A stretch of 62,251 nucleotides of DNA, the filler included. It is 9 parts of 9 records of this genome, joined end to end, with 100 filler letters (N's around TTAATTAATTAA, not from the genome) between each part and the next. Parts side by side here need not be neighbours in the genome. Positions count along the whole stretch, not along the records: positions 18,006 to 30,252 come from DRR723986_31948; 8 more parts are not named here. One strand, written 5' to 3'. Of the stretch, positions 1,876-37,472 are shown in pieces. The position numbers and the translations under genes are program-made. Position 1 is the first letter of the stretch, and each line of letters opens with the position of its first letter. The notes beneath the pieces are model-generated. The model was not told where the DNA came from, searched no databases, and was given only the letters and a program-made list of their open reading frames with translations.

Positions 1876-2448
1876 TTGGCAGGCATCTGGAACCCGTTTC
1901 GGAAAGCAAACGCACAAAAGCGACGGGCCGATACGCTGTATCGTGGCCTGATGGGCGCTGCGCTGTCTCCGGAAGCCTATGCGGCAGGCGTCGTGCCGGA
2001 TGACATGGATCATCGCGTCCAGATGGTTGGCCTCCATGCCGCTGTGCTTGTCTGGCAGTTAACCCGGAGACCGGAAAAAGCGCTACAGCGCCTGCCGCAG
2101 TTGATCCATGCCCGTGTTTTCGATGGGTTTGATGCGTCTTTGCGGGAAACGGGGGTGGGCGATGCATCAATTGCCCGGAAAGTTCGAAAGCTGGGTGAGC
2201 ATTATTACGGTCTGGGCGCTTCAACCGCAGACGCTCTTTCCCGGCCAGCCAGTGAGCGCGCTGGTGCACTTGAAGAGGTCCTGAAGCGGAATGGTGTTGT
2301 GACTGCTGGGCGTGAAGCGGACCTGTCACAATATCTGGTGGTAGTCGCCGAGGCGTTCGAGACGGCCACTTCAGACGCCTTTTTGTCGGGCACAGCCCCT
2401 TGGCAGACCTTCCCCGCAACAAGCAGACCCGGCGTTGCCAAGGTCTGA
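1876..2448 (+). CDS. Ubiquinol-cytochrome c chaperone (Cbp3-like)
   Basis: [27 protein letters not shown] motif; conserved position divergent from bamE. Confidence 0.85.
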
Positions 2449-2504
2449 GGCGCGCCTTAAACAGCGCGAACGGCCTTCAGCATGGCCTGAATCCGGAAGG
2501 CACT

Positions 2505-3539: not shown

Positions 3540-3566
3540 GTGAGCCACCCCAAAGAAGGAAACAAG

Positions 3567-4538
3567 ATGGCACGGCGTAGTTTCATCCGCGGGACAGGTG
3601 GTTATCTTCCCGAAAAAGTTCTGACGAATGATGATCTGTCGGCAATGGTCGACACATCCGATGAATGGATTCAGGAACGCACTGGCATCAAACGCCGCCA
3701 TGTTGCTGCCGAGGGCGAGCTGACATCGGATATCGCGACAGCTGCAGCCCGGTCTGCGCTGGAGGCGGCCGGCGTGCCGGTCTCCGATGTCGATCTCATC
3801 GTGCTGGCGACGACAACCCCGGACCAGACCTTTCCGGCCACCGCGACGGCTGTCCAGGCCAAGCTCGGTATGACGGGCGGCGCCGCTTTCGATGTCCAGG
3901 CGGTTTGCTCTGGCTTTCTGTTTGCGCTGGCAACGGCGGATTCCATGTTGAGGCAGGGACTCTTCAATACGGCGATTGTCATTGGCGCGGAGACTTTCAC
4001 GCGCATTCTCGATTGGTCGGACCGTGGCACCTGTGTCTTGTTCGGGGATGGCGGCGGCGCGGCTGTGTTGCAGGCTGAAGAGTGGACGGGTGACAACCTC
4101 GCTGGCGTGATCACGCACCACATCCGGACTGACGGCACGAAATCTGATCTTCTTTATGTTGACGGCGGTGTCAGCTCCACCGGCACAATCGGACATGTGC
4201 GCATGGAGGGGAACCGTGTGTTCCGGCACGCCGTGACCAATATCTCGTCCGCCATTCAGGCCATCTATGATGAGACCTGCCTGACAGGCGATGACATCGA
4301 CTGGTTCGTGCCGCACCAGGCTAACAAGCGGATCCTCGATGGAGTCGCAAAGAAGATGAACATCGCTGAAGAGAAAGTGATCGTCACCGTCCAGGAGCAC
4401 GCCAATACATCGGCAGCGTCCATACCGCTGGCGCTGAACCATGCGGTTCGTTCCGGCCGGGCGAAAAAGGGCGACCTGATCCTGTCAGAGGCGATGGGTG
4501 GTGGCTTTTCCTGGGGCGCAAGCCTGTTCCGCCTTTAA
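3567..4538 (+). CDS. fabH: 3-oxoacyl-ACP synthase III
   Basis: AVCSGF catalytic Cys, [18 protein letters not shown]; follows plsX. Confidence 0.97.
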
Positions 4539-4641
4539 ATTCAGGCGACAAGCTCCATTATTTCACGGATATTAGCTGACGGATGCGCTAGTAATCCGTT
4601 AACAATCCTTGGCTATATCTTAACCAGATCGGGAGAATCCC

Positions 4642-4935
4642 ATGTCCAACCAGACCATCACCCGCGCCGAAGTGACCGACAAGATCGTCAGCGAAGTCGG
4701 TCTGACCCGGCAGGAATCGTCGGATCTCCTCGACCGGACGCTGGATATGATCGGCGCGGCCCTGGAGCATGAAGACGAAGTGAAGCTCTCCCGGTTCGGC
4801 AATTTCGTGGTGCGGTCCAAGGCCGCCCGCGAAGGCCGCAATCCGAAAACCGGGGAGGAGGCCACGATCGCTGCACGGCGCGTTGTCACCTTCCGCCCGT
4901 CGCCGATGCTGAAGGCGCAGGTCGACAATAATTAG
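4642..4935 (+). CDS. ihfA: Integration host factor alpha
   Basis: VKLSRFGNF...GRNPKTGEE..I.ARRVVTFRPS; synteny fabH-ihfA-merR. Confidence 0.95.
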   Translation: MSNQTITRAEVTDKIVSEVGLTRQESSDLLDRTLDMIGAALEHEDEVKLSRFGNFVVRSKAAREGRNPKTGEEATIAARRVVTFRPSPMLKAQVDNN

Positions 4936-4955
4936 ATATCCAGGAAGGAACAGAC

Positions 4956-5438
4956 ATGAGCGCCAGCCGGGCCCGAATCGAAAAATCCGCGACCGCATTC
5001 CGGTCCATCGGTGAAGCAGCTTCGGAACTCGGCATCGAGACGCATGTCATCCGCTACTGGGAAAGCAAGTTTCCGCGCGAAGTCCGTCCTGTGAAGCGCC
5101 CCGACGGGAGGCGCATGTTCCGTCCACAGGACGTTGACGCTCTACGCGCCATCCAGATCCTGGTGCATGAGCGCGGCATGACGCTAAAGGGCGCCAAGTC
5201 ACTGATCGCGGAACAGGGCATATCTGCCGTGCTGAATGGCGAGGCCACGCTTGGCGCAGGTGCACCTGCCGGCAGCAGCCCTGCACGGGACCTTCAGGAG
5301 AGCGTTGCGAAGGCGTTCACCGAAGATGCCGCAGAAGGCCTGACCGACGATCGCCGTGCTCGTCTGGAAGGAGCTTTGACGGAGCTAACCGACATCAAAT
5401 CCCGCATCGACGCAGCCCTTGGGCGGCGCGCAGCCTGA
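4956..5438 (+). CDS. MerR-family transcriptional regulator
   Basis: KSATAFRSIGEAA...HVIRYWESKF...GMTLKGA; standard gene after ihfA. Confidence 0.9.
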   Translation: MSASRARIEKSATAFRSIGEAASELGIETHVIRYWESKFPREVRPVKRPDGRRMFRPQDVDALRAIQILVHERGMTLKGAKSLIAEQGISAVLNGEATLGAGAPAGSSPARDLQESVAKAFTEDAAEGLTDDRRARLEGALTELTDIKSRIDAALGRRAA

Positions 5439-5452
5439 ACCCACATAATTCA

Positions 5453-5481
5453 TTGCACACACCGGGCGGCTTGGTTACAAG
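5453..5481 (+). promoter_or_regulatory. Sigma70-like promoter of tRNA-Pro
   Basis: TTGCAC-17 nt-TACAAG just upstream of the tRNA. Confidence 0.55.
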
Positions 5482-5491
5482 CCGCTCTCGT

Positions 5492-5569
5492 CGGAGCGTG
5501 GCGCAGTCCGGTTAGCGCACTAGTCTGGGGGACTAGGGGTCGTGGGTTCGAATCCCGCCGCTCCGACCA
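5492..5569 (+). tRNA. tRNA-Pro(GGG)
   Basis: CGGAGCG acceptor, D-arm, anticodon arm CTAGT-CTGGGGG-ACTAG, GTTCGAATC T-loop, CCA end. Confidence 0.95.
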
Positions 5570-5595
5570 TTTCTCCGCCGCGCGGAGAAATGGTC
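5565..5595. terminator. Hairpin between convergent tRNA-Pro and ptrB
   Basis: GACCATTTCTCCG...CGGAGAAATGGTC inverted repeat. Confidence 0.6.
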
Positions 5596-5610
5596 GTTAC
5601 TCCGAAAGCC

Positions 5611-5959
5611 CTATTTCTTGGACAAATCCACGTCTTCAACCTGGCCAACTGCGGCGAGGGCAAAGGCGTATTCCGTGGCGACTTCCTTCAGGCCTTCGAA
5701 GCGGCCTGAGGCGCCGCCATGGCCCGCTTCCATGTTGATCTTGAGGAAGTACGGTCCGCCTTCCGGCGCGTCGTGACGGAGCTTTGCTGCCCATTTGGTC
5801 GGTTCCCAATAAGTCACGCGCGGGTCGGACAGGCCGCCTGTGATGAACATCGCCGGATAGTTCTGGGCCGTCACATTGTCATACGGGCTGTAGGCGGCGA
5901 TCTGGTCATAGTCTTCGACGCTGATCAGCGGGTTGCCCCATTCCGGCCATTCCGGCGGC
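5611..5959 (-). CDS. ptrB: Oligopeptidase B (S9A), C-terminal part
   Basis: EWGNP, YSPYDNV, DPRVTYWEP, AGHGGASGRF; open to contig edge. Confidence 0.9.
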
Positions 5960-6059
5960 NNNNNNNNNNNNNNNNNNNNNNNNNNNNNNNNNNNNNNNNN
6001 NNNTTAATTAATTAANNNNNNNNNNNNNNNNNNNNNNNNNNNNNNNNNNNNNNNNNNNN
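5960..6059. other. Artificial contig spacer
   Basis: N-run + TTAATTAATTAA (stops in all six frames) + N-run, 100 nt. Confidence 0.98.
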
Positions 6060-11157: not shown

Positions 11158-11257
11158 NNNNNNNNNNNNNNNNNNNNNNNNNNNNNNNNNNNNNNNNNNN
11201 NTTAATTAATTAANNNNNNNNNNNNNNNNNNNNNNNNNNNNNNNNNNNNNNNNNNNN
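11158..11257. other. Artificial contig spacer
   Basis: N-run + TTAATTAATTAA + N-run. Confidence 0.98.
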
Positions 11258-15942: not shown

Positions 15943-16610
15943 TCAAGCCATTGCGCCTGATCATATTTGATGTCGATGGGACGCTGGTCGACAGTCAGGC
16001 CAGTATCGTCGGGGCAATGACTGCGGCGTTTGAGGCGTTGTCAGTGCCAGTCCCAAGTCGCAGGGCGATCTTATCCATTGTCGGGTTGTCGCTGCCACAA
16101 GCGATGGCCCGTTTGGTGCCCGAGCAATCCGATCAGATCCAAGCCCAGCTGGTGCAGGGATACAAAGATTTCTACCGGGATCAGCGCCTTGCGTTGGGGG
16201 CCGCTCATTCGCCTCTCTATCCCGGTGCGCGTGAAATCTTGGACAGGCTGCATGATGTTCCCGAGTTCCTGCTGGGTATTGCCACAGGGAAATCCCTGCG
16301 CGGGTTGGACGGATTGATTGAAGCACACGGATTGGAACGGTATTTTGTGACCAAGCAGGTTGCCGATTTCCATCCCTCTAAGCCGCATCCGTCGATGATC
16401 GAAACAGCGCTAAGGGAAGCCGGGGTTGATGCATCAGCTGCTGTGATGATCGGAGACACTAGTTTCGACATGGAGATGGCGGCCAACGCCGGAGTGACGG
16501 GCATTGGTGTAAGCTGGGGGTACCACGATACATCTGCGCTACAGCATGCGGCTCAGATCATTGATACATTTGACGCGCTGCCTGAAACGCTGGCGCAAAT
16601 CTGGACATAA
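15939..16610 (+). CDS. HAD-IA hydrolase (phosphoglycolate phosphatase-like)
   Basis: FDVDGTLVDS, SKPHP, MIGDTSFD. Confidence 0.9.
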   Translation: MIKPLRLIIFDVDGTLVDSQASIVGAMTAAFEALSVPVPSRRAILSIVGLSLPQAMARLVPEQSDQIQAQLVQGYKDFYRDQRLALGAAHSPLYPGAREILDRLHDVPEFLLGIATGKSLRGLDGLIEAHGLERYFVTKQVADFHPSKPHPSMIETALREAGVDASAAVMIGDTSFDMEMAANAGVTGIGVSWGYHDTSALQHAAQIIDTFDALPETLAQIWT

Positions 16611-16613
16611 AAC

Positions 16614-17321
16614 ATGAGTGAATGGAAACCAAAACGGTTCTGGGAAAATAGCCTGGTTGTCGAAGCCGAAAATGGGTTCACCGTTGAGCTGGACGGGCGT
16701 CGGGTCAAAACCCCGGCCAAAGCTGGGTTGATTGTCCCAACGCGCGCGATGGCAGACGCAATCGCGGCTGAGTGGGATGCTCAGGACGGGCAGGTGGATC
16801 CTGGCACGATGCCAATGACCCGATCTGCCAATGCGGCAATTGATAAAGTGCGTCACCAACACGCAGAGGTGGCCGATATGTTGGCCGCTTATGGTGATTC
16901 GGATTTATTGTGTTATCGGGCGGATTCCCCTCGAGAATTGGTTCAAAGACAAGCGGAACAGTGGGATCCTGCCTTGGATTGGGCTGCTGAAACATTGAAT
17001 GTGCGCCTTGTTTCGCAATCAGGTGTGATCCATCGTCCCCAAAATTCCGAAGTCATCGAAACGCTCACTAAAGCGGTTCACGCGTTGGATTCTTTTCAAC
17101 TCGCCGCATTTCACGATCTTGTCAGTTTGTCTGGATCGCTGATTTTGGGCTTTGGCGCTGCAAAAGATTGGCGCAAACCCGACCAAATCTGGCAGATTTC
17201 GCGTCTGGACGAGCTTTGGCAAGAAGAATTGTGGGGCGTCGATGAAGAAGCCCAAAAAATGAGTGACGTGAAACGTCAGGCCTTTTTGCACGCGAAACGG
17301 TTTTTCGATTTCTCTGGTTGA
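16614..17321 (+). CDS. ATP12-family chaperone
   Basis: KRFW, LDGRRVKTP, AIAAEWDAQ, DLLCYRA, LDELWQEELWG. Confidence 0.92.
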   Translation: MSEWKPKRFWENSLVVEAENGFTVELDGRRVKTPAKAGLIVPTRAMADAIAAEWDAQDGQVDPGTMPMTRSANAAIDKVRHQHAEVADMLAAYGDSDLLCYRADSPRELVQRQAEQWDPALDWAAETLNVRLVSQSGVIHRPQNSEVIETLTKAVHALDSFQLAAFHDLVSLSGSLILGFGAAKDWRKPDQIWQISRLDELWQEELWGVDEEAQKMSDVKRQAFLHAKRFFDFSG

Positions 17322-17530
17322 GACCGTAAACTATCATTTTTGCTCAAGTTTCCCTTGGGGCAACTAGGGTGCATTTCATCGAAAGGGGTGATGCAACCCT
17401 TGACGTTTGTTGATGATTGCGACCACACTCGGGCCCACTGAAGGGGAGTGAACTTTTCGGTATTAAATCCGGCATTACTCAAGCCGGCAAAGCCGCCCCA
17501 CAATGAGGCGGACATCAGGAAGAGGTAAAA

Positions 17531-17905
17531 ATGAAAAAATCCGTAGTTTTCGGCGCGCTCACCGTCGCTGGCTTGGCAGCAAGCGCTGCTGCAGCTGGCA
17601 CGATGGATGATGTAAAAGCACGTGGCACATTGAACTGTGGCGTAACAACCGGTCTGGTTGGCTTTGCCGCACCAGATGCGAATGGCGAATGGAACGGTTT
17701 TGACGTTTCGGTTTGCCGCGCCGTTGCAGCCGCAGTTTTGGGAGACGCTTCTGCTGTTACGTTCGTACCGACCACCGGTAAGACACGCTTTACTGCGCTG
17801 GCTTCTGGCGAAATCGATGTGCTTGCACGTAACACCACTTGGACGTTCTCGCGCGATGTTGACCTCAAGTTCACCTTTGTTGGCGTGAACTACTATGACG
17901 GTCAG
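17531..17905 (+). CDS. aapJ: General L-amino acid ABC transporter substrate-binding protein, N-terminal part
   Basis: VKARGTLNCGV, RFTALASGEIDVLARNTTWTFSRD, YYDGQ. Confidence 0.9.
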
Positions 17906-18005
17906 NNNNNNNNNNNNNNNNNNNNNNNNNNNNNNNNNNNNNNNNNNNNTTAATTAATTAANNNNNNNNNNNNNNNNNNNNNNNNNNNNNNNNNNNNNNN
18001 NNNNN
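17906..18005. other. Artificial contig spacer
   Basis: N-run + TTAATTAATTAA + N-run. Confidence 0.98.
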
Positions 18006-19816
18006 GGGCAAACACGATACTGGGAGTTGCATTTCCCCCATTTGCTGCAAGTCTGAAAGATCCGTCGACACTATCGCCCCAGGAACTTACTGAGCAAAAG
18101 AATCAGGTAACCACCTGGTTGCAGCAGCAATACCCTTTTGTAGAGTTGGTTGACGACAATAAACAGTTGATCGATCTTGCAACCTTGCTTGCGACACACC
18201 CTGATTGGAGCGATTCACGGCCCATGCTTCTCGATGGCGCCGTCTTGGGGGAATTCAGCAGTTTAACAGCAGGTCAAAAAGCCGAAGATCCATTGTTAAC
18301 GGCAATTCAGGCCTATACCTCACTTACAGGCAAGTCCGTACTTTCACAAGCCCTGAGTGGGTTTAACGATGCCTTGCTTACACAAGAACGTGAATTTCAG
18401 TTGCCTGTTTGGGACTGGCGCGTCATGAATTTTCCTGACCAAAAAGCGTATGCACGCGATTTGGTTAATAATCTTGACGGCGTATGCACGGCGCCAGTAT
18501 TTGATGGCGTGTTCCTGCCCATCCGCGCCGGACTAATGCAGGTTTCCGGATTAACAATAGTCGATTCATTTGGGCAATTTCTGCCGCTGGAATACGGAGG
18601 TCCCAGCGCGACGAAAAAGTCTGAACGAATGACGATTCTCAACAATGTAGCTGCGTCAGTAAACAACCCCTCTGACATTGCCACGGCGATTGAGAATAAC
18701 AACTACTTGTACTTGCCACCGCGATTCGCTCAGGAAACACGACTCAATTTTCGCTGGTTATCAGCTGATATGGGCAATGCCTCAGGAGTTGGTGATGAAA
18801 TTGAAATGAATGATCACCCTGCGACGACGCCTGTTTGTGCATGGGTGCTACCCAACAATCTTGAAGGCAGCCTGGCAATATATGCCGCCGATGGTACAAC
18901 ACTCGGATCTGTGGTTCAAAGCAACGCAGACGGCACATTCTCAATTGTATGGCAATCAGCGCCGGGCACCAATAATTACACGCCCTTATCAGGACTGCCA
19001 AATCAACATCTGTCCAACTTTGTTAACAACATCATAAGCTGGGGATCAGAGAGCCAGAGCAATTGGCAAAACTTTCTATCCGACATCAACACGGCTTTAC
19101 AAAACATTGACCCTAAGAGTTTTGCGCAGCATCCGGCTCTGTCATTGCTCCTGGGCAGACCAATGGCATTGGTGCGAACCAGTATTCAATTGCAAAGCAG
19201 AGGATACCCGGACGTAGATCAAACAGTCAAAGCGTTTAACTATGCCCGATGCAAAAATTTGTTCACACGCCTGACCAATGGATTTGATGAAGCGGAACTT
19301 CCCGTGCGCCTCGGTGAGTCCAAACAACTTAATGATGGCCTGGTGGCCTATTTTGTAGAAGATGCTACGGGCGGGTTCACGCCGGGAGCATCAGGCTTGG
19401 CACATTTTCCCGAGACTGAACAAAGCGGAACTGAAGCAGATACCCTGAGTTTGACCTTGTCCGGGCCCCCTACCAAACTAAGCATGTTGGTTGACCCCAG
19501 GGGATCAGTCCATGCGACATGCGGTTTCCTTCCGGTGAAGGAAATAAATATCCCACCGGACCAATTTTCAGAAGTTCTCAGTACCCTGTCCCTTACCTTT
19601 TTGACATCACCGCTTCTTACACCGCTCCAAAGTGTTAAATACCCACTGCCGGCAGAAGCAGGTTATGCCTGGTCATGGCTAGACCGACCGACGGGATTTA
19701 CCTGGAACCGTGTCGCTGATATTCAGAATACATCTAGAGAAGCAATATACCAGCAACAACGGATTTTGGAAGGATGGTTAAAGTTAAGTCCCCAAACTGA
19801 GAAAGAAATAAACTAA
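18006..19816 (+). CDS. Large conserved hypothetical protein, C-terminal part (partner of DUF6603-type loci)
   Basis: Frame open from contig edge; motifs LSQALSGFNDALL, PIRAG..IVDSFGQ, LPPRFAQ..RL.FRW, GRPMALVR, DPRGSVHATCGFLP, terminal GWLKL. Confidence 0.8.
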
Positions 19817-19828
19817 AAGGACGCGATA

Positions 19829-22800
19829 ATGCCTAGCACTTTTGGAAATATATTCACCTTCGCCCCACCTGCGGAACCCGACGGATCGGAATTCTTCTAT
19901 GATCTCCTGACCGGTTGTCAAAATTCAATGGAGTGTCATAAGAAGGTTCTTGAACTATTCCTGAACACATTGAAATTATCCAGCATCAAGTATCGTACAG
20001 GAGCATTTCAGTCTGATCCAGCAGTTCCCAGCATAGGCACCGATGCAGATTTGATTCAATTGTTAACATATATTCCAGAAGACATTAAATACCCTTACAA
20101 TCAGGTTTTGTATGAACAGTGGAATCTTGCAGAGAACAATGCTAACATTGGAGCGTTCGCCAACTATGTGCAGACTTACTCTGAAGCAAATATTCCAGAA
20201 ACATTACAAGATGCGGTTAATCATGTTAAGTCAATTCATTATGCTGTTGCGTACAATGATTTGGTGACAGGGTACAAACAAAAAGATTGGACAAATGCAC
20301 CTGGTGTGCCGGCGCTTCCGGAATTAATAGTAGATACACTACCTAGTGGTCCTTCACTCCACACTGACATGCTAAAAGATAAGCTTCAAATTCTTCAACA
20401 ATGGATTTCTACAAATGACCCCAGTCTCAAGGCATTAACAGAAGCACATGCGATGGCGGACGCTTCAACTATTTTAACCGCCGTTTTCGGCCCCCCTCCA
20501 AACCCTGAAATCAATACTATACATTTTTGTGAACTCCTAGTTTCAAACATTCAAAACAATGGCTGGGAGACGTTAGTTGACAAAAGCGCAAAAAGACTGT
20601 TTTTCGAAACAGTACAAACCGCCTTCAGTACGATAGATTTTTGGATTAACAACCCAGATACCAAGCGACTCGTCCAAGCATTTTTAACGCATACTCCTTT
20701 ACAGTGGAACAAAAATCCAGAAATATCCGTAAAGGCATTCGAAATAATCAGCCAAATATTTGGCTCCGCCATCACACCCGGTGAAGGCGGAGTTTCGAAT
20801 CCTGCCTACCTAGCTGTTCGGAACACTTTCAATCAATTTGCAGATATTTCTGCCGCTACCTCCACTTTTCTATTCGCTCGACTGCAAGATACTTGTTTGA
20901 ATCTACAAGCCATTGTAAATGAAGATCCTTCCACCCTTAAGGCCTTTTGTAATGAAATTGATAGACCAGTACCCCCAACTATCCACTATTCAGAATTAGA
21001 TGCGCTAATCGAAGTGGTTGGCGATGTTTTACAAATGATTGGCCTAACACTATCCCCAAATGGACCATCTGTCCGTCTTTTTCCATTTAGCATCTTTGAC
21101 GATCTTAGATCGAAGCCCAATGCCATACGCTTGCTGGGAGAAGGTACTGTGCAGAAAACAAATGATATTGAAGTTTCTGCAGACGCATCTGAAACTACCG
21201 GCGAACCACCTGAAACAAAACCTTATTGGCGGCCGATTGTCGGCGTATTCACTGACGAACATAATGGCAACGCTACATTTATTAAGTTCTTCAACTTTAA
21301 TGGAGCGAGTCAAGGATGCTTCTATTTCACAGATCCGAATAATCCAGGTTTAGTTCAGGCCAATGAGTTTTCGGACCCTCCGCAAGAACTATTCTTTGAT
21401 TTCATTTCAGTAACTGTCAATGGATCTGAAAGCGCGCTCAACGACGACGTGGCTGGTGTGTTACTGGGATCTCTATATGCTGTGCCAAAAGGGGCTGGAG
21501 TCAGCAAAGCAAATTTCTATTTGGCCGTTAGATCCTTATCTAAATGGACTAGGTTAAACGGTCAACGACATTATGATGCAATCTATGAAACCGGCTTTGA
21601 TTCCGATGGCAATGAACTCCCGGTTGATCCACATTTGATTTGGTACGTAGGCACGGGAGATTTGAATCGTTCCGACAAAGTGGATGATGAACTTTGTCTA
21701 TGGAAGTGGATGGCCAGTGAAAAACTTCAGAGCCAGTTTCCTGAGCTTCCCAATTTATTGGGGCTACCACCAGCCCGAAGAGTATCAAATGACGTCGCAG
21801 CTGCGTCCTCAGAAGAAATAGCCGGGCCTATAAAACAGTTTTTCCTGGTAGAGAATTTCGGGACAGGATACTTTGTACTAACAAATACACCGCACCCCAA
21901 GCTGCCAGCCCGTATAGATGAAGTGCTTCAAAGACATGCTGGCACTTCTACTTCAATTGATGAACAGGCACAAGGTATCCTGAGTCTTTTTGATTTTCAC
22001 TACTACCGAAAAATTGATGAGACAAAAATGTACAAAGTGATTAAATACCTTCCTGCTAGCAATAAGCCAAACTCAGATGCGGGTGGAATAGCCTTAGAAG
22101 AAACTGGACCGAATGATGAGAGTGCGATTGGCATAAGCCCGCCCCTTTCCTTTAGGCTCGGCAATAACATTATTTTTTTTAAAAATGATACGGCGCCGGG
22201 AAATCCCGCAGGGACATATTTAAAGAACAAGGGCAATCCGCTGTTTCGAGCCGGGAGAAAGCGGCTAGCGGCTGGGTCCGTGATGGCTAAGCTTCGCAAT
22301 GATATGAGTATAGCTGTTAAACCAGGGACGAACAGCTCATTATCAGCCACCAATTTTGCGAATTGGGTATTGGCAAACTCTCGGGGCGTTCTAGATCATT
22401 GGAATGGTTTAACGACAAATGGACGAGGTGATGTACCTACTGATCAGGAATGGTGCCATCTCCTGGGACATGGCGATGGTGGAGACGAGCGCTTGGGGAA
22501 CTTTGTCAGTGGCAGTTTTCACTGCAATACTGAACAGTTGGCTATGGAATCCAAAGGGCGAAGGCAAGTTACACAGAGAGCACCGAAAGGCAGTTTCGAA
22601 TTGCGCAGTACGGCATATATGTTCAACAATAGTCAAGATTTACTATCCAACAACTACCTCAGATACGATGGGGCCTATCAGAAAATGGTGCAGGTTTATA
22701 GTACTTTGAAAAAGCAACCGGAGTCGGCTATGCGAACCGACGGAGCAGGAGCAGTAGCTCCATTTGCGGCTCTAATGCGCTACAAAATGTATCACAATGT

Positions 22801-23044
22801 GCCATCTGAAACAAGCGCATCGGAAGAAGGGCATTCTCAAAAGAAACGGAAAGTTCAATTCAAATATGTTAAAGTCTTTGACCATATTTTCGAAGGACAG
22901 AGCGAATTCATGGACCAACATCAGTTCAATATCCTCAAACATGCCGCCTGGTTTGCTCTGGCTGGCATGGGAGATTTAGAAATTTGGTACAGACAACAAG
23001 CAGCAGCATCTGCCGAAGGTGCTGCTGATGGCATGAACGAGTAA
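19829..23044 (+). CDS. 1071-aa protein with C-terminal His-Me-finger (DNA/RNA non-specific) nuclease-like domain; putative toxin/effector
   Basis: AAGGA RBS; motif EWCHLLGHGDGG...NFVSGSFHCNTEQLAME; KKRKV near the C-terminus; function inferred. Confidence 0.7.
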   Translation: MPSTFGNIFTFAPPAEPDGSEFFYDLLTGCQNSMECHKKVLELFLNTLKLSSIKYRTGAFQSDPAVPSIGTDADLIQLLTYIPEDIKYPYNQVLYEQWNLAENNANIGAFANYVQTYSEANIPETLQDAVNHVKSIHYAVAYNDLVTGYKQKDWTNAPGVPALPELIVDTLPSGPSLHTDMLKDKLQILQQWISTNDPSLKALTEAHAMADASTILTAVFGPPPNPEINTIHFCELLVSNIQNNGWETLVDKSAKRLFFETVQTAFSTIDFWINNPDTKRLVQAFLTHTPLQWNKNPEISVKAFEIISQIFGSAITPGEGGVSNPAYLAVRNTFNQFADISAATSTFLFARLQDTCLNLQAIVNEDPSTLKAFCNEIDRPVPPTIHYSELDALIEVVGDVLQMIGLTLSPNGPSVRLFPFSIFDDLRSKPNAIRLLGEGTVQKTNDIEVSADASETTGEPPETKPYWRPIVGVFTDEHNGNATFIKFFNFNGASQGCFYFTDPNNPGLVQANEFSDPPQELFFDFISVTVNGSESALNDDVAGVLLGSLYAVPKGAGVSKANFYLAVRSLSKWTRLNGQRHYDAIYETGFDSDGNELPVDPHLIWYVGTGDLNRSDKVDDELCLWKWMASEKLQSQFPELPNLLGLPPARRVSNDVAAASSEEIAGPIKQFFLVENFGTGYFVLTNTPHPKLPARIDEVLQRHAGTSTSIDEQAQGILSLFDFHYYRKIDETKMYKVIKYLPASNKPNSDAGGIALEETGPNDESAIGISPPLSFRLGNNIIFFKNDTAPGNPAGTYLKNKGNPLFRAGRKRLAAGSVMAKLRNDMSIAVKPGTNSSLSATNFANWVLANSRGVLDHWNGLTTNGRGDVPTDQEWCHLLGHGDGGDERLGNFVSGSFHCNTEQLAMESKGRRQVTQRAPKGSFELRSTAYMFNNSQDLLSNNYLRYDGAYQKMVQVYSTLKKQPESAMRTDGAGAVAPFAALMRYKMYHNVPSETSASEEGHSQKKRKVQFKYVKVFDHIFEGQSEFMDQHQFNILKHAAWFALAGMGDLEIWYRQQAAASAEGAADGMNE

Positions 23045-23050
23045 ATAATT

Positions 23051-26000
23051 ATGAACACACCATTACAAAATATCAAGCCGCTCAACGATGTTTTGACACT
23101 CTCTCGAAATGACTTGGGAGACATTGCCTATGTTGGCATTCAAAATGCCTTAAAGCTAACAGGCGATTTAATATTAACCGATTGTCCGTTTCCCTATCCC
23201 ATTCCGGCAACAGCTAACCTTCTAACAACTGAAGGCAAGATTACCTCCCTCTTAGGAAAGGGGCAAGCAAGCGTAAAACTGTATCTATTCGAAGTGGCAA
23301 CCATCTTTTCTACAACCGAACGCCATGCCATACTTCTGTTTACCGAAATACCGCAAGGTTTTACAGTACCCGATTTGTTAACGCCTTTCGGCGGCGCGAC
23401 TGGAAGCGGGTTACCGGATGAAGTCTCATCCCTGCAAAGTTTGTCCTTTGCGACTGGAAATCAATACCTAATGTTTTCAACATTAGCGTATCAATACAGT
23501 CAATATGTAAATCCTCCCTTTCCGCCAGCACAAGACACTCAATTGTCCACGGATATCAATAGCTTTGTGACCGAAGTTCAAAAGGAGCTTTCACAGGGAT
23601 ATTTATTCCTGGCTACGGCGCAGTTGGAAGCAAGTATCACGATTCCAGTGCCGCCTGATGCCCCACCCAATGCAGAAGCCATTGACATAGATTTGTCAAC
23701 GGTGCTTGGTATCCTTGACCTGGGTGACCTGTGTACGATTGGATTCAGTATTACAGGACAATTATCATTCACTCAGGCTTCTCCTCAATTGAATCTACTG
23801 CATGTATTATCATCAAATGTTTTACCCTCGACCATTCCCCTAAAACCAAGTCTTACAGCTGTAGGTATAGGATTCAGCCTGGGATCCGGTACCATCCAAA
23901 TCCCATCCTTTATACTTCAGGGCACCTTGTCACTGGACAGCACTCCTTCGGATGTCGGTCTGACGTTTAACCCCTACACAGAACAACTTCAAGTCTCCTT
24001 TTCACAACTTCCGGACTTTGCCGATTTGGCTCAAAATTTTGATTCCGGGACATCCCTGAACAGCATTTTGGGAAATTCACTGCCTGATGACGTGCTTTCT
24101 ACATTAGGCACGCTGGAGATTCTGTCTCTCGACTTGACGATTGACATCGACAGCCTTAGCGTCAGCGCCCTGTCATTTAGCATTGCCACCGAAAAACCCC
24201 TTCCACTCTTTGAGGGTATCACGGTTCAACCGGCCTTGATTGTTGAATTAACGAATCCCTTCGCCTCGTTCTATTCGGCCAGTATTGACGTGGTAGGAAA
24301 GTGGTTTTTCAAGAGCGCATCACTTGACACGATTCTAATGCTACAACGTGGCAGCGTTCCGGCGGACGACAGTACCACGTTTATTGCGCGGCTAAGCCTG
24401 GGTGCCGGTATAGATCTAATAGAAATAGCGGAATCCCTGTTTCATAAACAAATCGCTGGACTACCGACCTTGGTGCTGTCGGATATTGATGTGATGGCTC
24501 AGAAGTCAGGCAGTGGAGCGACCGCCGTTGAGACTATCAATATTTCTCTGGACGTTGCTTCCGGCTGGAATCTGGATGGAATTGATATCGGAATCGATGA
24601 TCTAAGCTTATCACTTGGATTTGAGAAAGCCAATTCCACAGCCAACTGGCTAGCGCAGGATGTGTCCGCCCAAGGTACCTTGGAAATCGGCACTCTCTTT
24701 TTTAACCTGGATGCTGAATACGATGGTAGCGACAAAACCTGGTCATTTACCGGAGGCACGCTCCCGGGAGAAACGCAAAACCTGGGCGATTTTTTGGAAG
24801 GAATCACCCAGGCCCTGGGCTTGGAAGCACCCGCTGATTTTCTGGCTCCGTTCAATGCCGTTAATGTCGACGGCTGCTATTTTGAATACCAAACAAATAG
24901 CTCAGGTTCGGCCTCCTGGAAATTAACAGTCTCGGTAGACTTTGATTCAGGTCCCCCGTTTAACGGTGTCCATCTGGATGAAATAGTCATAAGCTTGGGC
25001 AGAAATGGAACAGGTACGTCCTTTTCATTTGATGCGACTGCGCCGGCAACTCAAAAAGTGGACTCACTCACCAACTATTTGAGCCAGTCGCTGGGTGTTA
25101 CGGTGGACTTACCATCCGCACTTACAAGCACGGATATCTTGCTGAAAGGTTTGAGCGCTTCCTACGACTCGGCTACGAAGAACTACAGTTTTATGGCCTA
25201 TCTCAACTTTGGCGAAAATGCCCTGGTTCAGCTGGGCATCCAGATTGTCACACAAACTCTTAATGGAACAACTACCAAAGACTATGAACTGGGAGGTTCT
25301 CTGATTTTCAACCCTGGTGAGACTGACGAATTTGCATTTCAACTCGAACTTGTTAAAACCGGAGCCGAAAGTGATTTGATAGCGTCCTTTCAATCCAGCA
25401 CGAGTAGCCAAGGCATTTTGCTTAACAAGTTAGTACAGGCTATCGTCCCTTCCGCACCCGGCTTGGATACCTTTGAAATTGAAATCAAAGATGCGCTTTT
25501 TGCTCACAGTGGCATAAATGGCAGCAACCCGGCAAAATCTGTGTTTGCAGTAGATATGGGTGCTCAGGTAAATCTTTCAAGGCTCGGTAATCTTCCACTC
25601 ATTGGACCAGAATTGGCTTCAGCCAGCAGTTTGGATCTGGCCTTTCAAGTAACGTATGCCACAGGCGCCTATACAGCAGCCGAAATCATAGCCATTAACC
25701 AACTGTTGGGTGACCCAAGTTTTAAGTTTCCAGAAATCTTAATACATCCCCAACAGATCTCAATTTCGACTTCAATGCGCGTCGCCGGCCAGGAAGTAAT
25801 TGATATGACGGTTCCCGTGTCTGCCGATAGCAGTGGTGGTTTAACTCCCACAGGTGGAACCAACATAACAAGTACCAATTCAAATACATCGGCCACGGGT
25901 GCCAGTCAGGGTATTACCTGGTTCCCACTAAATAAAGCCTTCGGACCGATGCGCATCAATCGCGTAGGATTAGCATTTGATCAGTCCAGCACGAGTATTG

Positions 26001-28081
26001 TCGCTTATCTCGACGGCGCCGTAACAGTTGGTCCGCTGACATTTGACCTCTTAGGCTTGGATGTAGCTATTCCCTTGACGGGAGACAATAAATTCGACCC
26101 AACTTTTGGTTTACAAGGCGTGGGCTTGGAGTATGCCAGTGGTCCACTAAATATCGCTGGAGCATTGTTTAAGCAGACTCTCAACGGTATGTCGGAGTTC
26201 GATGGTTTCGTGACCGTTAGTACCGAGTCATTGGAAATAGGCGCTGTTGGATCATTTGCACAAATGAACGATGGTCATGATTCTTTGTTCGTTTACGCCG
26301 TTCTGGGCGAGCCCCTGGGCGGCCCTGCATTTTTCTTTGTTACAGGTCTTGCTGCGGGCTTTGGGTATAACCGGAAACTCATCCCCCCTCCAATTTCACA
26401 AGTACAAAACTTCCCATTGATTGCGGAAGCAACAACCCCCTCCCCGCAACCGCCGACGGGCAGTGATCTGAGTGGAGTTCGCGACTATGTAGCAGAACAA
26501 CTGCAACTCATGCAATCGAACATAGTACCTGCAGAAGGTGAGTATTTTTTAGCCGCCGGAATTAAGTTTACCTCTTTTGAATTGCTCAATGGTTTTTTGC
26601 TGGCTGTCGTGCAATTTGGCAATGAGTTTCGGATAGATATTCTCGGGCTTGCAACGGCCTTGTTACCACCAGACGATAATGACGATCCCTTAGCTGAGGT
26701 CCAACTGGCGATTCTTGCGCATTACGTTCCATCAGAGGGATCCATTTGGGTGCAAGGACAATTAACTCCCAATTCCTATATTCTATCCAAAAGTTGTCAT
26801 TTAACCGGTGGTTTCGCATTGGCCTCCTGGGACAGTGGAGCGCATGAAGGTGTGTTTGTACTAAGCATAGGCGGTTATGCAACGGATTTCCAGGTTCCGG
26901 CTTATTACCCCCAGATTCCTCGTGTAGGGTTTAACTGGCAGGTAAGTGATCAGCTAAATGTAAAGGGTGGCGGGTATTTTGCCTTAGTCCCCCACGCATT
27001 CATGGCTGGTGGCAGCTTAAATGCCGTATGGCAGAGTGGTGATGTTAAGGCCTGGTTTCTACTAAACGCCAATTTCCTAATCGAATGGAAACCCCTCCAT
27101 TATCAAGCTGACATTAACGTTTCGCTTGGCGCTCAACTAACCATCCACTTTTTTGGAACCCATCATGTTTCGATTGATGCCAGCGCTGCTCTGGATGTTT
27201 GGGGACCTGAGTTCGGCGGACATGCCCGAATTACAGTAGATGTCATTGGAATTCACTTTCACTTCAGTATTGATTTTGGTTCGTCTTCAGCCACTCCTCC
27301 ACCATTAAAATGGAACAAATTTCAAAGCTCGTTTTTACCAGCTAATAGTGATCAATGGCTGAGTGTTAACATACAGGGCGGCCTGCAGCGAACAGTAAAA
27401 GGTACCTTGCCGGATCAAACGGAAGTAGATGTGTGGATTGTTAAACAGGATGAATTGTCTTTGAGCTCTTCCTCCGTTGTTCCAGTCAAGTCAGTCAATT
27501 TCAACTTGGATGCCAGCCCGGTCACAGCACCTGCAATCACACAAGCTACTCCTGGCATTGCCCCAATGGCAGTTAGTAGCATAGAAACATCGGGACAAAC
27601 CATAAACATTACAAAAATTGTCAGTGGAGTGCCGACCAACTTGCCAGGTAGCATTCCAGTAGCAAGTGAACAATTGAAACTGGTGCCGATCTCCAAGAAA
27701 ATCCCAAGCGCACTGTGGGGGCACACACGCAGTCAGCCGCTCAATCCAGCACCTGGCACCGATGTATTGGATTCAATATCTGGCTTTTCAATATTGCCAA
27801 CACTGGAAGCTTACGATGACCCTGCCGCCATAACCGTGGACAGGTCTTCAATGGCTTATGAAACAACACAGGAAGAAGGATTCGAATGGGGCGCAAGTGC
27901 AGGAACATTCGAGGCCGCTACTTCTTCGTGGACAGCTATTGAAACATCAATTCAATCCACTTTATCAGTCCGCTCAACTGCACTGGACAAATTGGGATTT
28001 TCAACATTCAAGGAAAACTTCAATCAGCCCATTGAACTGGATACACCAGAATTGCCACAGTTTGGCACACTGAACAGTTGA
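23051..28081 (+). CDS. 1676-aa DUF6603-type protein
   Basis: C-terminal half has LGGPAFFFVTGLAAGFGYNR, FLAAGIKFTSFELL, CHLTGGFA, SIGGY..PRVGFNW, YFALVPHAFMAGG, recognised from memory as DUF6603. Confidence 0.8.
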   Translation: MNTPLQNIKPLNDVLTLSRNDLGDIAYVGIQNALKLTGDLILTDCPFPYPIPATANLLTTEGKITSLLGKGQASVKLYLFEVATIFSTTERHAILLFTEIPQGFTVPDLLTPFGGATGSGLPDEVSSLQSLSFATGNQYLMFSTLAYQYSQYVNPPFPPAQDTQLSTDINSFVTEVQKELSQGYLFLATAQLEASITIPVPPDAPPNAEAIDIDLSTVLGILDLGDLCTIGFSITGQLSFTQASPQLNLLHVLSSNVLPSTIPLKPSLTAVGIGFSLGSGTIQIPSFILQGTLSLDSTPSDVGLTFNPYTEQLQVSFSQLPDFADLAQNFDSGTSLNSILGNSLPDDVLSTLGTLEILSLDLTIDIDSLSVSALSFSIATEKPLPLFEGITVQPALIVELTNPFASFYSASIDVVGKWFFKSASLDTILMLQRGSVPADDSTTFIARLSLGAGIDLIEIAESLFHKQIAGLPTLVLSDIDVMAQKSGSGATAVETINISLDVASGWNLDGIDIGIDDLSLSLGFEKANSTANWLAQDVSAQGTLEIGTLFFNLDAEYDGSDKTWSFTGGTLPGETQNLGDFLEGITQALGLEAPADFLAPFNAVNVDGCYFEYQTNSSGSASWKLTVSVDFDSGPPFNGVHLDEIVISLGRNGTGTSFSFDATAPATQKVDSLTNYLSQSLGVTVDLPSALTSTDILLKGLSASYDSATKNYSFMAYLNFGENALVQLGIQIVTQTLNGTTTKDYELGGSLIFNPGETDEFAFQLELVKTGAESDLIASFQSSTSSQGILLNKLVQAIVPSAPGLDTFEIEIKDALFAHSGINGSNPAKSVFAVDMGAQVNLSRLGNLPLIGPELASASSLDLAFQVTYATGAYTAAEIIAINQLLGDPSFKFPEILIHPQQISISTSMRVAGQEVIDMTVPVSADSSGGLTPTGGTNITSTNSNTSATGASQGITWFPLNKAFGPMRINRVGLAFDQSSTSIVAYLDGAVTVGPLTFDLLGLDVAIPLTGDNKFDPTFGLQGVGLEYASGPLNIAGALFKQTLNGMSEFDGFVTVSTESLEIGAVGSFAQMNDGHDSLFVYAVLGEPLGGPAFFFVTGLAAGFGYNRKLIPPPISQVQNFPLIAEATTPSPQPPTGSDLSGVRDYVAEQLQLMQSNIVPAEGEYFLAAGIKFTSFELLNGFLLAVVQFGNEFRIDILGLATALLPPDDNDDPLAEVQLAILAHYVPSEGSIWVQGQLTPNSYILSKSCHLTGGFALASWDSGAHEGVFVLSIGGYATDFQVPAYYPQIPRVGFNWQVSDQLNVKGGGYFALVPHAFMAGGSLNAVWQSGDVKAWFLLNANFLIEWKPLHYQADINVSLGAQLTIHFFGTHHVSIDASAALDVWGPEFGGHARITVDVIGIHFHFSIDFGSSSATPPPLKWNKFQSSFLPANSDQWLSVNIQGGLQRTVKGTLPDQTEVDVWIVKQDELSLSSSSVVPVKSVNFNLDASPVTAPAITQATPGIAPMAVSSIETSGQTINITKIVSGVPTNLPGSIPVASEQLKLVPISKKIPSALWGHTRSQPLNPAPGTDVLDSISGFSILPTLEAYDDPAAITVDRSSMAYETTQEEGFEWGASAGTFEAATSSWTAIETSIQSTLSVRSTALDKLGFSTFKENFNQPIELDTPELPQFGTLNS

Positions 28082-28105: not shown

Positions 28106-30163
28106 ATGTCAAATCCTCCCGCTACAAAACCAATCGGTAAAGTGACCTTTTCATCCTTCAATTTGCCCGTGCTTGATGACGGCTTGTACAAAATTGAAGT
28201 CGAGCAGACTTTCCAGGCTGATGCCGATAGCCCGCTTGTAACGGTCCCGACACAAACTCGCTATTTTGCAGCCCTTGGTCCCAGATATTCACTGGATCCC
28301 AAAGAAATTGCCACACAGTTCCCACCTCCAAAAACGAGTGGCAATTATTACAATGTCCTACCTCATATAATGTTCACCCGCGCCATTTTGCCCTGGGAAA
28401 AAAGACTGGATCCTGCCAGGCCTACCACCCCCTGGCTAACACTTATTGCCTGTACCCGCGATGAAATCACAGGATGGCAGACTTCTACCGGAAATGACAA
28501 AATTCTTACGGTCCAAACAAATACGTTGGAAGAAGTCTGCCAGGATGCACAAATGAATAATATTGTATTTCCTGCATTGGCTGAAATAACACTACTACCT
28601 GGAGAATCTTCCACGGAATCTGTTAACTACATCGACATTCCTGAAACTTTACTTCAACTGGTATTACCAACTGAAGACGAATTGCCGACCCTGGCCAACC
28701 TAAGACAATCTGCGGATCCAGCTCCACCGGGAAGTGAAAACCCCAAACATCCCGTTCTTATCTGCAATCGATTGCCACAACCTGGTCAAGAGAACATTAT
28801 ATTTCTACTCTCACTGGAAAACAGAACCGATGTTTACACGCACCTGGCTTCGGCTGCTGACTTAACAGGAATTCCTGTTCCGTCGGCCGCTCCCAAGTTG
28901 TACCGTTTTGCCGTATTGAATAGCTGGAGTTTTGCCTCAGTAACACCTGATGTATCATTTGAGCAGCTTTTAGTCGATGCAAATGGACTCGCCAGTTCGG
29001 CTCTGGGGACTCTGCGTCTTCCATCTGTTGGTGATACGAATGTCGACCCGTTTTTGGAAAAAGGCTACGTGCCGCTGCAACATCAGGCTCGTCAGGGCAA
29101 TACAATGGTTAGCTGGTATCGCGGCCCTTTAATACCTGCTGTTGCGCCTATACCTGCAAGTCCACCGTTACCCTCATCAATTAACTCTCCCGATAGTCTT
29201 GTACGTGCATATTCTGAAATTGGAATGTTTGATATCACTTACGCCAGTGCATGGAATATCGGCAGGAGTTTAATGCTGGAGAACAAGCGCGTATCTCAAG
29301 TACTATTTGAGTGGAAAAGGGCTTGTGTGCAGGCAAACAAAGCCAATGTACCAGCGCATCTCCCCGTCAACAAACCGGTTGCTCCACCTCTTCCCGATCT
29401 GGTCAATGACTGGTTTGTTAAATTGGCCCGGCTTGAACAAATTCCTTTTAACTACCTGGTGGCAGATGATAAACTCTTGCCCGCAGGTTCCATTCAGTTT
29501 TTCGCAGTCGACCCACAGTGGGTGCAATTACTACTACGTGGGGCCTTTGCCATTGGAGACATCGCCTCCAGCGATGAGAACATCGAAGATAGTTTGTTTG
29601 AGAATATCCCGACGCCAGATAGTTTAAGTGGTTTTCTGTTGCGTTCACCGGTTGTGAGTGGTTGGCCGCATCTTTTAGTTAATGGATTTGATGCAGAGCC
29701 ACCATCGGGAACAAACCCGCCATTTGAAACTGAAGTACCGCCTTTAGCGCAACATCGCTATACGCTCGGAAAAGACACCTTGTTTTGTTTATTCGAGGGG
29801 GCTGTCAAGAGCGTAGAAATTTACCTGCATCCTGAAACCATCCATTTTGGAATTGACTATTATGCTACAGACGCTGCCAACAACATTCCATCACCCTGTT
29901 ATTTAAAGCTCCTGCGTGATGCAGATGGCAACCCGATCCAACCTGCGGTCTTACCCTGTGATACGGACAGATCGCTGGAGTTTGACCTCAATCAATGGGT
30001 CCGAATCCCCTTCCGAATTGCCGACTCTGGAGTACTTAACACGGCTACTCTCGTTCAGCGCTTAACAAGTGCGCTACCAAATACTGATGTTACACCGGCA
30101 GAATTTGCCTATCAAATGGTAGAAGGTGTTCCAAAGGTTCGTTTTACTGCTAAACAGCCTTAA
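28106..30163 (+). CDS. 685-aa conserved hypothetical protein that accompanies DUF6603 genes
   Basis: GPRYSLDP..FPP..LPHI..LPWE, SWYRGP, FDITYASAW.IGR, IPFNYLV, GFLLRSPVVSGWP, AEFAYQM. Confidence 0.8.
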   Translation: MSNPPATKPIGKVTFSSFNLPVLDDGLYKIEVEQTFQADADSPLVTVPTQTRYFAALGPRYSLDPKEIATQFPPPKTSGNYYNVLPHIMFTRAILPWEKRLDPARPTTPWLTLIACTRDEITGWQTSTGNDKILTVQTNTLEEVCQDAQMNNIVFPALAEITLLPGESSTESVNYIDIPETLLQLVLPTEDELPTLANLRQSADPAPPGSENPKHPVLICNRLPQPGQENIIFLLSLENRTDVYTHLASAADLTGIPVPSAAPKLYRFAVLNSWSFASVTPDVSFEQLLVDANGLASSALGTLRLPSVGDTNVDPFLEKGYVPLQHQARQGNTMVSWYRGPLIPAVAPIPASPPLPSSINSPDSLVRAYSEIGMFDITYASAWNIGRSLMLENKRVSQVLFEWKRACVQANKANVPAHLPVNKPVAPPLPDLVNDWFVKLARLEQIPFNYLVADDKLLPAGSIQFFAVDPQWVQLLLRGAFAIGDIASSDENIEDSLFENIPTPDSLSGFLLRSPVVSGWPHLLVNGFDAEPPSGTNPPFETEVPPLAQHRYTLGKDTLFCLFEGAVKSVEIYLHPETIHFGIDYYATDAANNIPSPCYLKLLRDADGNPIQPAVLPCDTDRSLEFDLNQWVRIPFRIADSGVLNTATLVQRLTSALPNTDVTPAEFAYQMVEGVPKVRFTAKQP

Positions 30164-30252: not shown

Positions 30253-30352
30253 NNNNNNNNNNNNNNNNNNNNNNNNNNNNNNNNNNNNNNNNNNNNTTAA
30301 TTAATTAANNNNNNNNNNNNNNNNNNNNNNNNNNNNNNNNNNNNNNNNNNNN
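30253..30352. other. Artificial contig spacer
   Basis: N-run + TTAATTAATTAA + N-run. Confidence 0.98.
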
Positions 30353-37372: not shown

Positions 37373-37472
37373 NNNNNNNNNNNNNNNNNNNNNNNNNNNN
37401 NNNNNNNNNNNNNNNNTTAATTAATTAANNNNNNNNNNNNNNNNNNNNNNNNNNNNNNNNNNNNNNNNNNNN
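37373..37472. other. Artificial contig spacer
   Basis: N-run + TTAATTAATTAA + N-run. Confidence 0.98.

Follow-up and report, generated by a model that had tools for sequence, protein, structure and literature searches.

Here, we describe a gene, referred to as gene C, for a 1071-amino acid (aa) protein that lies within a 62,251-nucleotide (nt) stretch of DNA (the window) and whose conserved C-terminal domain carries a candidate His-Me finger nuclease active site. The window consists of nine contigs joined by eight artificial linkers of the form N44-TTAATTAATTAA-N44 and is not one piece of a genome; therefore, the genomic context of gene C is the contig at 18006-30252 only (DRR723986_31948; 12,247 bp; guanine-plus-cytosine (GC) content 0.465), and neighborhood across the linkers is meaningless. 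Consequently, neither the genes on the left (for a protease, MgsA, a pseudouridine synthase, a HAD protein and ATP12) nor those on the right (for transporters) were accepted as context, because they lie on other contigs. The contig is bounded by the linkers 17906..18005 (left end) and 30253..30352 (right end), starts within a gene referred to as gene B, and carries four co-directional, tightly spaced open reading frames (ORFs) with gaps of 12, 6 and 24 nt, the start of gene C lying 12 nt past the stop codon of gene B:

18008..19816, plus strand: gene B, 3' fragment truncated by the contig start; 602 aa, no known family
19829..23044, plus strand: gene C, the 1071-aa motif protein (P0003); ATG start, AGGA-type ribosome-binding site upstream
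23051..28081, plus strand: gene D, 1676 aa; DUF6603 (PF20248), expectation value (E) 6.9e-136, residues 960-1473
28106..30163, plus strand: gene E, 685 aa; no known family

Within gene C, three predicted domains and a set of candidate active-site residues are distinguished:

19829..21037, plus strand: residues 1-403, N-terminal domain; predicted all-helical, no relative detectable outside the family
21038..22165, plus strand: residues 404-779, middle domain; predicted beta-rich
22166..23041, plus strand: residues 780-1071, conserved C-terminal domain; predicted alpha/beta, with six long strands, a beta-beta-alpha unit and a terminal helical hairpin
22445..22549, plus strand: residues 873-907, predicted beta-beta-alpha (His-Me finger) core, spanning the candidate site
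22448..22450, plus strand: E874, acidic, three positions before the proposed catalytic His
22454-22456 and 22523-22525, plus strand: C876 and C899, cysteines directly preceding H877 and N900
22457..22459, plus strand: H877, proposed general-base His; final residue of strand 1
22499..22501, plus strand: N891, end of the inter-strand loop; middle "N" of an HNH-type motif
22526..22528, plus strand: N900, Asn proposed to bind the metal; first helical turn, 23 residues past H877
22547..22549, plus strand: E907, seven residues past N900 in the same helix; proposed second-shell or water-mediated metal ligand

A preliminary description of this DNA had proposed a nuclease active site at 22448..22549 on the basis of a peptide with His, Gly-Gly, Asn and Glu at characteristic distances. 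Translation of the plus strand gives exactly this peptide, EWCHLLGHGDGGDERLGNFVSGSFHCNTEQLAME, in frame and corresponding to residues 874-907 of the 1071-aa ORF, and the numbering of the proposed catalytic His as residue 877 is exact, as E874 is the first residue of the peptide. The opposite strand of 22448-22549 encodes an unrelated peptide with nothing comparable. When the whole window is translated in six frames, a relaxed version of the motif (HL-x4-7-GG-x4-6-N-x7-9-N-x5-8-E) matches once, at 22448-22549; it gave any match in 1/300 residue shuffles. Thus, the motif is more than chance.

The conservation of the motif was assessed in 149 aligned rows, i.e. representatives less than 50% identical to one another that remained from 207 domain rows after removal of rows with more than 20 gaps in the motif block. 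Over these rows, the block is the most conserved stretch of the family protein, with the consensus Q-E-W-C-H-L-x-G-H-G-D-G-G-x-E-x3-N-F-V-S-G-S-x-H-C-N-T-E-Q-L-A-I-E. W875, C876 and H877 are each present in 148/148 rows, and N891, S896 and Q903 in 149/149, while Q873 is present in 146/148, C899 in 146/149, and E874 in 143/148 with D in the other 5/148. N900 is present in 148/149 rows in one count and 148/150 in another, and E907 in 148/148 and 150/150, respectively. Outside the block, the basic residues R812 and K1015 of the C-terminal domain are nearly invariant, and R912, R984 and K986 are invariant among 58 close homologues.

The predicted fold places these residues in a defined arrangement. 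In an AlphaFold2 model of residues 790-1071 based on a 104-sequence alignment (mean predicted local distance difference test score (pLDDT) 92.8 and predicted template modelling score (pTM) 0.88, with 10-residue pLDDT blocks of 97-98 over the core), DSSP assigns a core with a strand at 873-877, the loop GHGDGGDERLG, a strand at 892-896 and a helix at 897-906. H877 closes the first strand, N891 directly precedes the second, and N900 is the fourth residue of the helix and lies in its first turn; the rest of the predicted domain comprises six further long strands, several helices and the terminal helical hairpin. A full-length model (58 sequences; pLDDT 84.4, pTM 0.70) has the same core elements together with a helical domain at 1-403 and a beta-rich domain at about 406-770. 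Searches of this full-length model against the PDB returned very weak helical-bundle matches only, namely Vip3B (E 4.6e-3, template modelling score (TM) 0.06) and AhlB/SmhA (TM about 0.1), which we consider uninformative. In the excerpt of PMC5714182 on which we draw throughout, the His-Me finger is defined as two antiparallel strands followed by a helix, strand 1 ending C-terminally in a catalytic His that is nearly invariant. The residues named in that definition all have an invariant counterpart in gene C. Both AlphaFold2 models contain the two predicted strands and the helix, and the His at the end of the first predicted strand is H877, which is invariant; E907 is located at +7 from N900 versus +4 or +8 in the description in that excerpt. 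In other words, the predicted beta-beta-alpha unit falls exactly on the motif and has the geometry of a His-Me finger in the models. The preliminary description had named a predicted fold lacking the beta-beta-alpha-metal motif as grounds for abandoning the proposal; the predicted fold has a beta-beta-alpha unit on the motif.

The conserved domain is most likely nearest to the DNA/RNA non-specific (NS) endonuclease group, i.e. Endonuclease_NS/Endonuclea_NS_2, which includes EsaD/EssD, streptodornases, Serratia nuclease and EndoG. In a comparison of language-model features of residues 760-1071, the best clusters (0.94/0.93/0.92, sharing 196/192/178 of 256 features) are all PF13930 (Endonuclea_NS_2), which we take to be the same as the "EssD-like domain"; the PF13930 family set was found in 18/30 matches, and others carry Ntox4 or Endonuclease_NS. 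Similarly, Foldseek searches of the C-terminal domain in BFVD returned EssD-like proteins at ranks 2, 4 and 17 (rank 4 with probability 0.89, E 0.067, TMt 0.40 and a root-mean-square deviation of 3.7 A over 125 columns), a "DNA/RNA endonuclease" at rank 14 and EndoG/NUC1 at rank 42. Among PDB structures, Serratia nuclease, EXOG, EndoG, Sda1 and ENPP/autotaxin together account for 29 of the 36 rows listed and for 13 of the first 15; ENPP/autotaxin carry a nuclease-like His-Me domain (PMC5714182, excerpt). Alignments to Serratia nuclease, EndoG and EXOG (group 5), the top PDB neighbors, extend over 140-266 columns, and in this group the finger is backed by a beta-sheet (PMC5714182, excerpt).

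As targets for a profile comparison with hhalign, we used the streptodornase of Streptococcus prophage 315.6, which as a control matches Endonuclease_NS (2.8e-10) and Endonuclea_NS_2 (1.7e-7), and a shallow alignment (A5; effective number of sequences (Neff) about 3) of 11 sequences, i.e. this protein and ten phage or plasmid homologues. The sole alignment in both runs places C-H-L..G-G..N..G of the gene C family ungapped on S-H-L..G-G..N..G, so that the active-site blocks line up. In both families, a 27-residue block has H, GG, N, G and N at offsets 0, +7/+8, +14, +18 and +23, and H184/N207 in A5 are 23 residues apart, as are H877 and N900. The streptodornases (Sdn/Sda1/Mf4) and plasmid NS nucleases thus share their motif offsets with gene C. 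They differ from it in that their S-H is C-H and their G-T is G-S in gene C, in that their GGMxYxE block is absent from gene C, and in that they are secreted and 240-390 aa long, compared to 1071 aa without a signal peptide in gene C. EsaD/EssD, the nuclease toxin of the S. aureus type VII secretion system (T7SS), also has a C-terminal nuclease domain that ends a longer protein. In EsaD, as described in an excerpt of PMC9616950, a six-stranded sheet accompanies the finger, the catalytic H528 and the Mg-binding N551 are 23 residues apart, and D525 is located at -3 from the His; compared by description with that excerpt, the gene C model has six long strands besides the finger, the same H877-N900 distance, and E874 at the same offset as D525. 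By contrast, gene C lacks detectable similarity to the Pfam model, a T7SS or LXG-type N-terminus, and a downstream immunity gene resembling EsaG.

Several results weigh against assigning the domain to these nucleases, or limit what the comparisons can carry. Foldseek gave 0 matches at E<=1e-3 in the PDB (best E 0.23, TM 0.2-0.33), and the nuclease matches in BFVD are all at E 0.049 or worse; the structural check that had been proposed thus returned neighbors mostly of the Endonuclease_NS/NS_2 type and none at a significant score. The hhalign comparisons are not significant (E 0.27 against the single streptodornase, E 0.31 against A5, probability about 0.2). The language-model scores are to be read against a calibration in which shuffled proteins reach at least 0.9 in 4-10% of cases and which was made on whole proteins, while the query was part of a protein. 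The DRGH signature ending in the catalytic His, a feature of the NS group (group 5) according to the excerpt of PMC5714182, is absent; gene C has EWCH instead, and only the His and the acidic residue at -3 correspond. Of 13 positions invariant in A5, 6 are matched by the gene C block, and 6 or more of 13 are reached by chance in 1400/20000 shuffles (7%), while the window translated in six frames contains 9 such places; this template was therefore rejected as not discriminating. Neither residues 760-1071 nor a 100-aa core matched any Pfam family at E<=10, and the domain does not match the hidden Markov models (HMMs) of Endonuclease_NS or Endonuclea_NS_2 (PF01223 / PF13930). When 52 relatives were searched against Pfam, none reached the cut-off and 51 were without a match, the exception being a CEP76_N match (16.9 bits, below the 27-bit cut-off) that we rejected. 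NCBIfam had no match to the 1071-aa protein, and phmmer and profile searches of PDB sequences matched no nuclease. In addition, the operon context considered below comes from four loci of one subfamily, and a cytoplasmic non-specific nuclease without an immunity gene is awkward, and self-protection of the producer is something we can only infer.

The proposed nuclease active site is therefore best described as supported, not proven, by the models and the alignment: the predicted fold, the invariant His, Asn and Glu, the 23-residue spacing between H877 and N900 and the nuclease neighbors speak for it, while no fold, profile or HMM score is significant. Because all comparisons with known nucleases fall below significance, it could be argued that the motif is not a His-Me finger at all and that the conserved residues form another site, e.g. 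a metal site of C876, H881, H898 and C899 or the center of a different hydrolase, with the nuclease resemblance being coincidental. The two cysteines, C876 (148/148) and C899 (146/149), fit this idea in that they have no counterpart in A5; they may serve in packing, in a disulfide or in metal binding. However, H881 and H898 are less strictly conserved, both being present in 128/149 rows, which argues against an obligatory Cys2His2 metal site as a universal feature of the family. Moreover, language-model features, 3Di fold searches in two libraries and the hhalign register converge on the same superfamily, and the predicted secondary structure places the conserved residues as in the superfamily definition (PMC5714182, excerpt). 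We therefore regard a different kind of site as rather unlikely. A zinc-knuckle HNH domain (PF01844-like) was looked for specifically; the domain has no CxxC pairs and no Pfam HNH match at E<=10, but C876 and C899 are nearly invariant.

It is also conceivable that the domain is a catalytically dead nuclease-like module that serves in nucleic-acid or protein binding or as a scaffold, as in ENPP/autotaxin. ENPP1, ENPP3 and autotaxin make up 13/36 of the listed Foldseek PDB rows, although the aligned part may be another ENPP domain, and the ENPP group is described as inactive (PMC5714182, excerpt); the lack of an immunity gene would also be easier to explain if the domain were harmless. On the other hand, the inactive ENPP group is without the catalytic His in the same excerpt, while in 149 rows of less than 50% mutual identity H877, N900 and E907 show little or no variation, as an active site would. 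For these reasons, we consider a dead module quite unlikely, and the C-terminal domain is probably active as a nuclease, judging from the models and the conservation.

The family to which gene C belongs is broad and has escaped annotation. A word-indexed search identified only two full-length homologues (51% and 43% identity), and an exhaustive HMMER search with the homologue alignment 236 representatives at E<=1e-3, 190 of them at <=1e-10 and 63 at <=1e-30; family details rest on the best 150 of these 236. The hundreds of members occur in cyanobacteria (Microcystis, Trichodesmium, Lyngbya), Bacteroidota (Chitinophaga, Balneola, Amoebophilus) and Alphaproteobacteria, and the source names include Balneola, Symploca, Hormoscilla, Hoeflea, Chitinophaga, Microcystis, Cylindrospermum, Trichodesmium, Lyngbya, Candidatus Amoebophilus, Caulobacter and an Acidobacteriota metagenome-assembled genome (MAG). 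All named members are annotated as "hypothetical" or "unknown protein", and a precomputed Pfam domain is present in 0/120 of the matches listed. Likewise, a second profile search for annotated intermediates gave 147 matches, of which the 120 listed (120/120) are unannotated family members. The whole 1071-aa protein had no Pfam family at the gathering cut-off and no match in PHROGs, and tblastn against plasmids and phages returned nothing. For residues 1-779, there was no Pfam, NCBIfam or PHROG family, and a language-model feature search gave no usable neighbor. Thus, the family is invisible to the HMM libraries searched.

The part common to the family is the C-terminal domain, for an HMM of residues 780-1071 matched 152/152 proteins and later 207/207. 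Among 129 listed representatives of at least 600 aa, 76 share only this domain with gene C, 28 share the N-terminal, middle and C-terminal regions, and 24 the middle and C-terminal regions without the N-terminal one, so that the middle domain is present in 52/129 overall; the N-terminal and C-terminal domains without the middle region were found in 1/129. Among nine close homologues (three more distant rows were left out), identity to gene C is 33-43% in the N-terminal domain, 36-52% in the middle domain, 57-68% in the C-terminal domain and 85-96% in the motif, making residues 1-403 the fastest-diverging part of the protein.

The preliminary description had seen in this protein the usual layout of a polymorphic toxin. 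On such a reading, the long N-terminus would serve in delivery or trafficking, the C-terminal nuclease would be the exported toxic tip, and a cognate immunity protein would neutralise it in the producer. This assignment was not supported. In polymorphic toxins, a variable C-terminal toxin is attached to a conserved N-terminal body, which is the reverse of gene C, where the C-terminal domain is the conserved end and the N-terminus the least conserved among close homologues. Similarities to the Rhs, CdiA and LXG-type toxins exist: a nuclease-like domain is located at the C-terminal end of the gene C protein, the N-terminal regions of the family are diverse and mutually unrelated by HMMER, with 76/129 long representatives sharing only the C-terminal domain, paralogues of gene C occur in tandem at one locus, and group-5 His-Me nucleases serve as polymorphic toxins (PMC5714182, excerpt). 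Apart from the swapped conserved and variable ends, the differences are as follows. No trafficking or secretion domain, signal peptide or transmembrane segment was detected in the 1071-aa protein with Pfam, NCBIfam, PHROG, language-model and hydrophobicity searches. In several relatives, among them P0080, P0077 and P0039, 100 to more than 1000 residues follow the C-terminal domain. Finally, no immunity-sized ORF follows gene C: the next ORF, 6 nt past the stop codon, encodes the 1676-aa DUF6603 protein, and the order is the same at two orthologous loci (L002, L003), while at a third (L001) gene C is followed by its paralogue. By contrast, in 5/6 comparison loci of plasmid NS nucleases (L005, L007-L010) an ORF of 115-132 aa lies within about 40 nt downstream. 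This ORF is hypothetical in four loci and encodes an XRE family regulator in L007, and at the sixth plasmid locus (S. aureus) a JAB-domain gene follows after a gap; possibly, the small ORFs are inhibitor or immunity genes. Altogether, we consider a classical polymorphic toxin very unlikely.

The neighbors of gene C form a conserved operon. Orthologous loci were found in a Balneola MAG (L001), a Hyphomicrobiales MAG (L002) and an unclassified MAG (L003), with the common gene order A-B-C-D-E; gene A is not on the window contig. The products are:

Gene A: 616-724 aa; fibre-like, variable tip
Gene B: ~1400 aa; no known family
Gene C: ~1050 aa; motif protein
Gene D: ~1676 aa; DUF6603
Gene E: ~687 aa; no known family

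The gene B fragment in the window shares 74% identity with its counterpart in L002 (residues 798-1399 of a 1399-aa orthologue), gene D is 69% identical to its orthologue in L002 and 74% to that in L001, and gene E is 76% identical to its L002 orthologue. Overall, B, D and E are 67-76% identical across genomes that are labelled as different phyla and vary in GC content from 0.42-0.56, with 40-51% for C. The GC content of the operon tracks that of the flanks in each host (0.42 to 0.56), so that the high protein identity is due to constraint and not to very recent transfer. Such conservation of B, D and E between phyla is unusually strong for proteins without known function. In gene A, the N-terminal ~410 aa are conserved (60% identity between L001 and L002) and the tips vary: the tip carries a Peptidase_S74 domain (intramolecular chaperone) in L002 and L003, and in L002 it matches 18 PHROG families, 17 of them in the tail category.

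L001 has tandem duplications of both A and C, and its C copies are 45% identical. The two gene A copies (1425-3599, 724 aa; 3641-5731, 696 aa) share 92% identity over about 526 residues, beyond which they are completely divergent; judged from the alignment, this is the pattern of swappable receptor-binding tips. Gene D is split at this locus (16415-16939, 16984-21429) into a 174-aa ORF corresponding to D residues 1-157 and a 1481-aa ORF that begins near D residue 190; a frameshift, a fault in the assembly or a genuine split could account for this.

Other searches of the operon were negative. No hydrophobic segment of 19 residues and no obvious signal peptide was detected in operon proteins A-E, PDB sequence searches of genes B, D and E gave nothing below E 0.1, B, C, D and E contained no detectable phage structural family such as those of the sheath, tube, baseplate or capsid, and a full-text literature search for DUF6603 / PF20248 found no paper.

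Based on these data, we suggest that residues ~780-1071 are a very divergent, unannotated His-Me finger nuclease and that gene C encodes an effector of a multi-protein conflict system that is restrained in its producer, an explanation that we favor and consider reasonably probable. In this model, H877 at the end of strand 1 would activate a water molecule, and N900 in the first turn of the helix would, together with E907 and E874 as helpers, hold a hydrated divalent metal ion, probably Mg2+. N891 would brace the hairpin, and R812, R912, R984, K986 and K1015 would grip the nucleic-acid backbone. The domain would be the constant catalytic module of proteins of ~700-1100 aa with fast-diverging N-terminal regions, and C the enzymatic effector of a conflict machine that could be a delivery particle or a defence complex. 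As to the safety of the producer, C would be kept harmless by its own N-terminal domains or by partner proteins rather than by a dedicated small immunity protein.

The nature of such a machine can be envisioned in two ways. Tentatively, the operon may encode an undescribed conflict machine of unannotated giant soluble proteins, i.e. a particle that is targeted by a fibre, delivers a nuclease and has no dedicated immunity protein, an idea that we still hold to be unlikely. In such a particle, the conserved core would consist of B, D and E, with A directing it to a target surface and C as the payload that degrades nucleic acids. Like the fibres of phage tails and tailocins with Peptidase_S74 domains, gene A ends in such a domain in L002 and L003, has tail-type PHROG matches in L002 and has a variable tip; unlike in those systems, B, C, D and E are without a recognizable phage structural family, and the particle would have no recognizable sheath, tube, baseplate or secretion signal. 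Alternatively, the same nuclease could have a different role, with the five-gene operon serving in anti-phage or anti-plasmid defence and C as its abortive-infection or degradation effector rather than as an offensive toxin. The five operon proteins all being without export signals, the lack of an immunity gene and the fact that the effector C is the fastest-evolving component would be in line with such a role. PADLOC-DB 2.0, however, gave 0 families at E<=0.1 for 4/4 operon proteins, none of the operon proteins has an ATPase, helicase, methylase or other usual defence domain, and the phage-tail-fibre tips of gene A (Peptidase_S74, tail PHROGs) point to binding to an outside surface. We hold a defence role, too, to be unlikely, to a similar degree.

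The remainder of the window has no bearing on gene C. The eight linkers separate segments with GC contents from 0.415 to 0.716, and because of this span the segments are probably from different organisms or from a mixed bin. The linkers are located at:

5960-6059
11158-11257
17906-18005
30253-30352
37373-37472
44202-44301
49768-49867
55504-55603

The contig at 6060-11157 (72% GC) has a 1684-aa ORF with a fibronectin type III domain (E 1.5e-13), which is overlapped by two others, one of 1666 aa on the opposite strand and one of 1465 aa in a different frame; the overlapping long ORFs are probably high-GC artefacts. At 56551-62100, a 1849-aa protein has ten FG-GAP-like repeats, a lactonase-type beta-propeller, Big_9/Big_5 Ig domains and a C-terminal FlgD_ig-like domain, and is thus a large protein of the surface or a secreted one; its contig is unrelated to that of gene C.

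If the proposed assignment is right, the chemistry of gene C would be well known while the protein family is not: we think it fairly probable that its domain works like an Endonuclease_NS/NS_2 nuclease while falling outside those Pfam families by the HMM test. The assignment would open a first functional approach to the operon of giant proteins in which DUF6603 is found, and a nuclease without a small immunity partner raises the question of how the producer protects itself.

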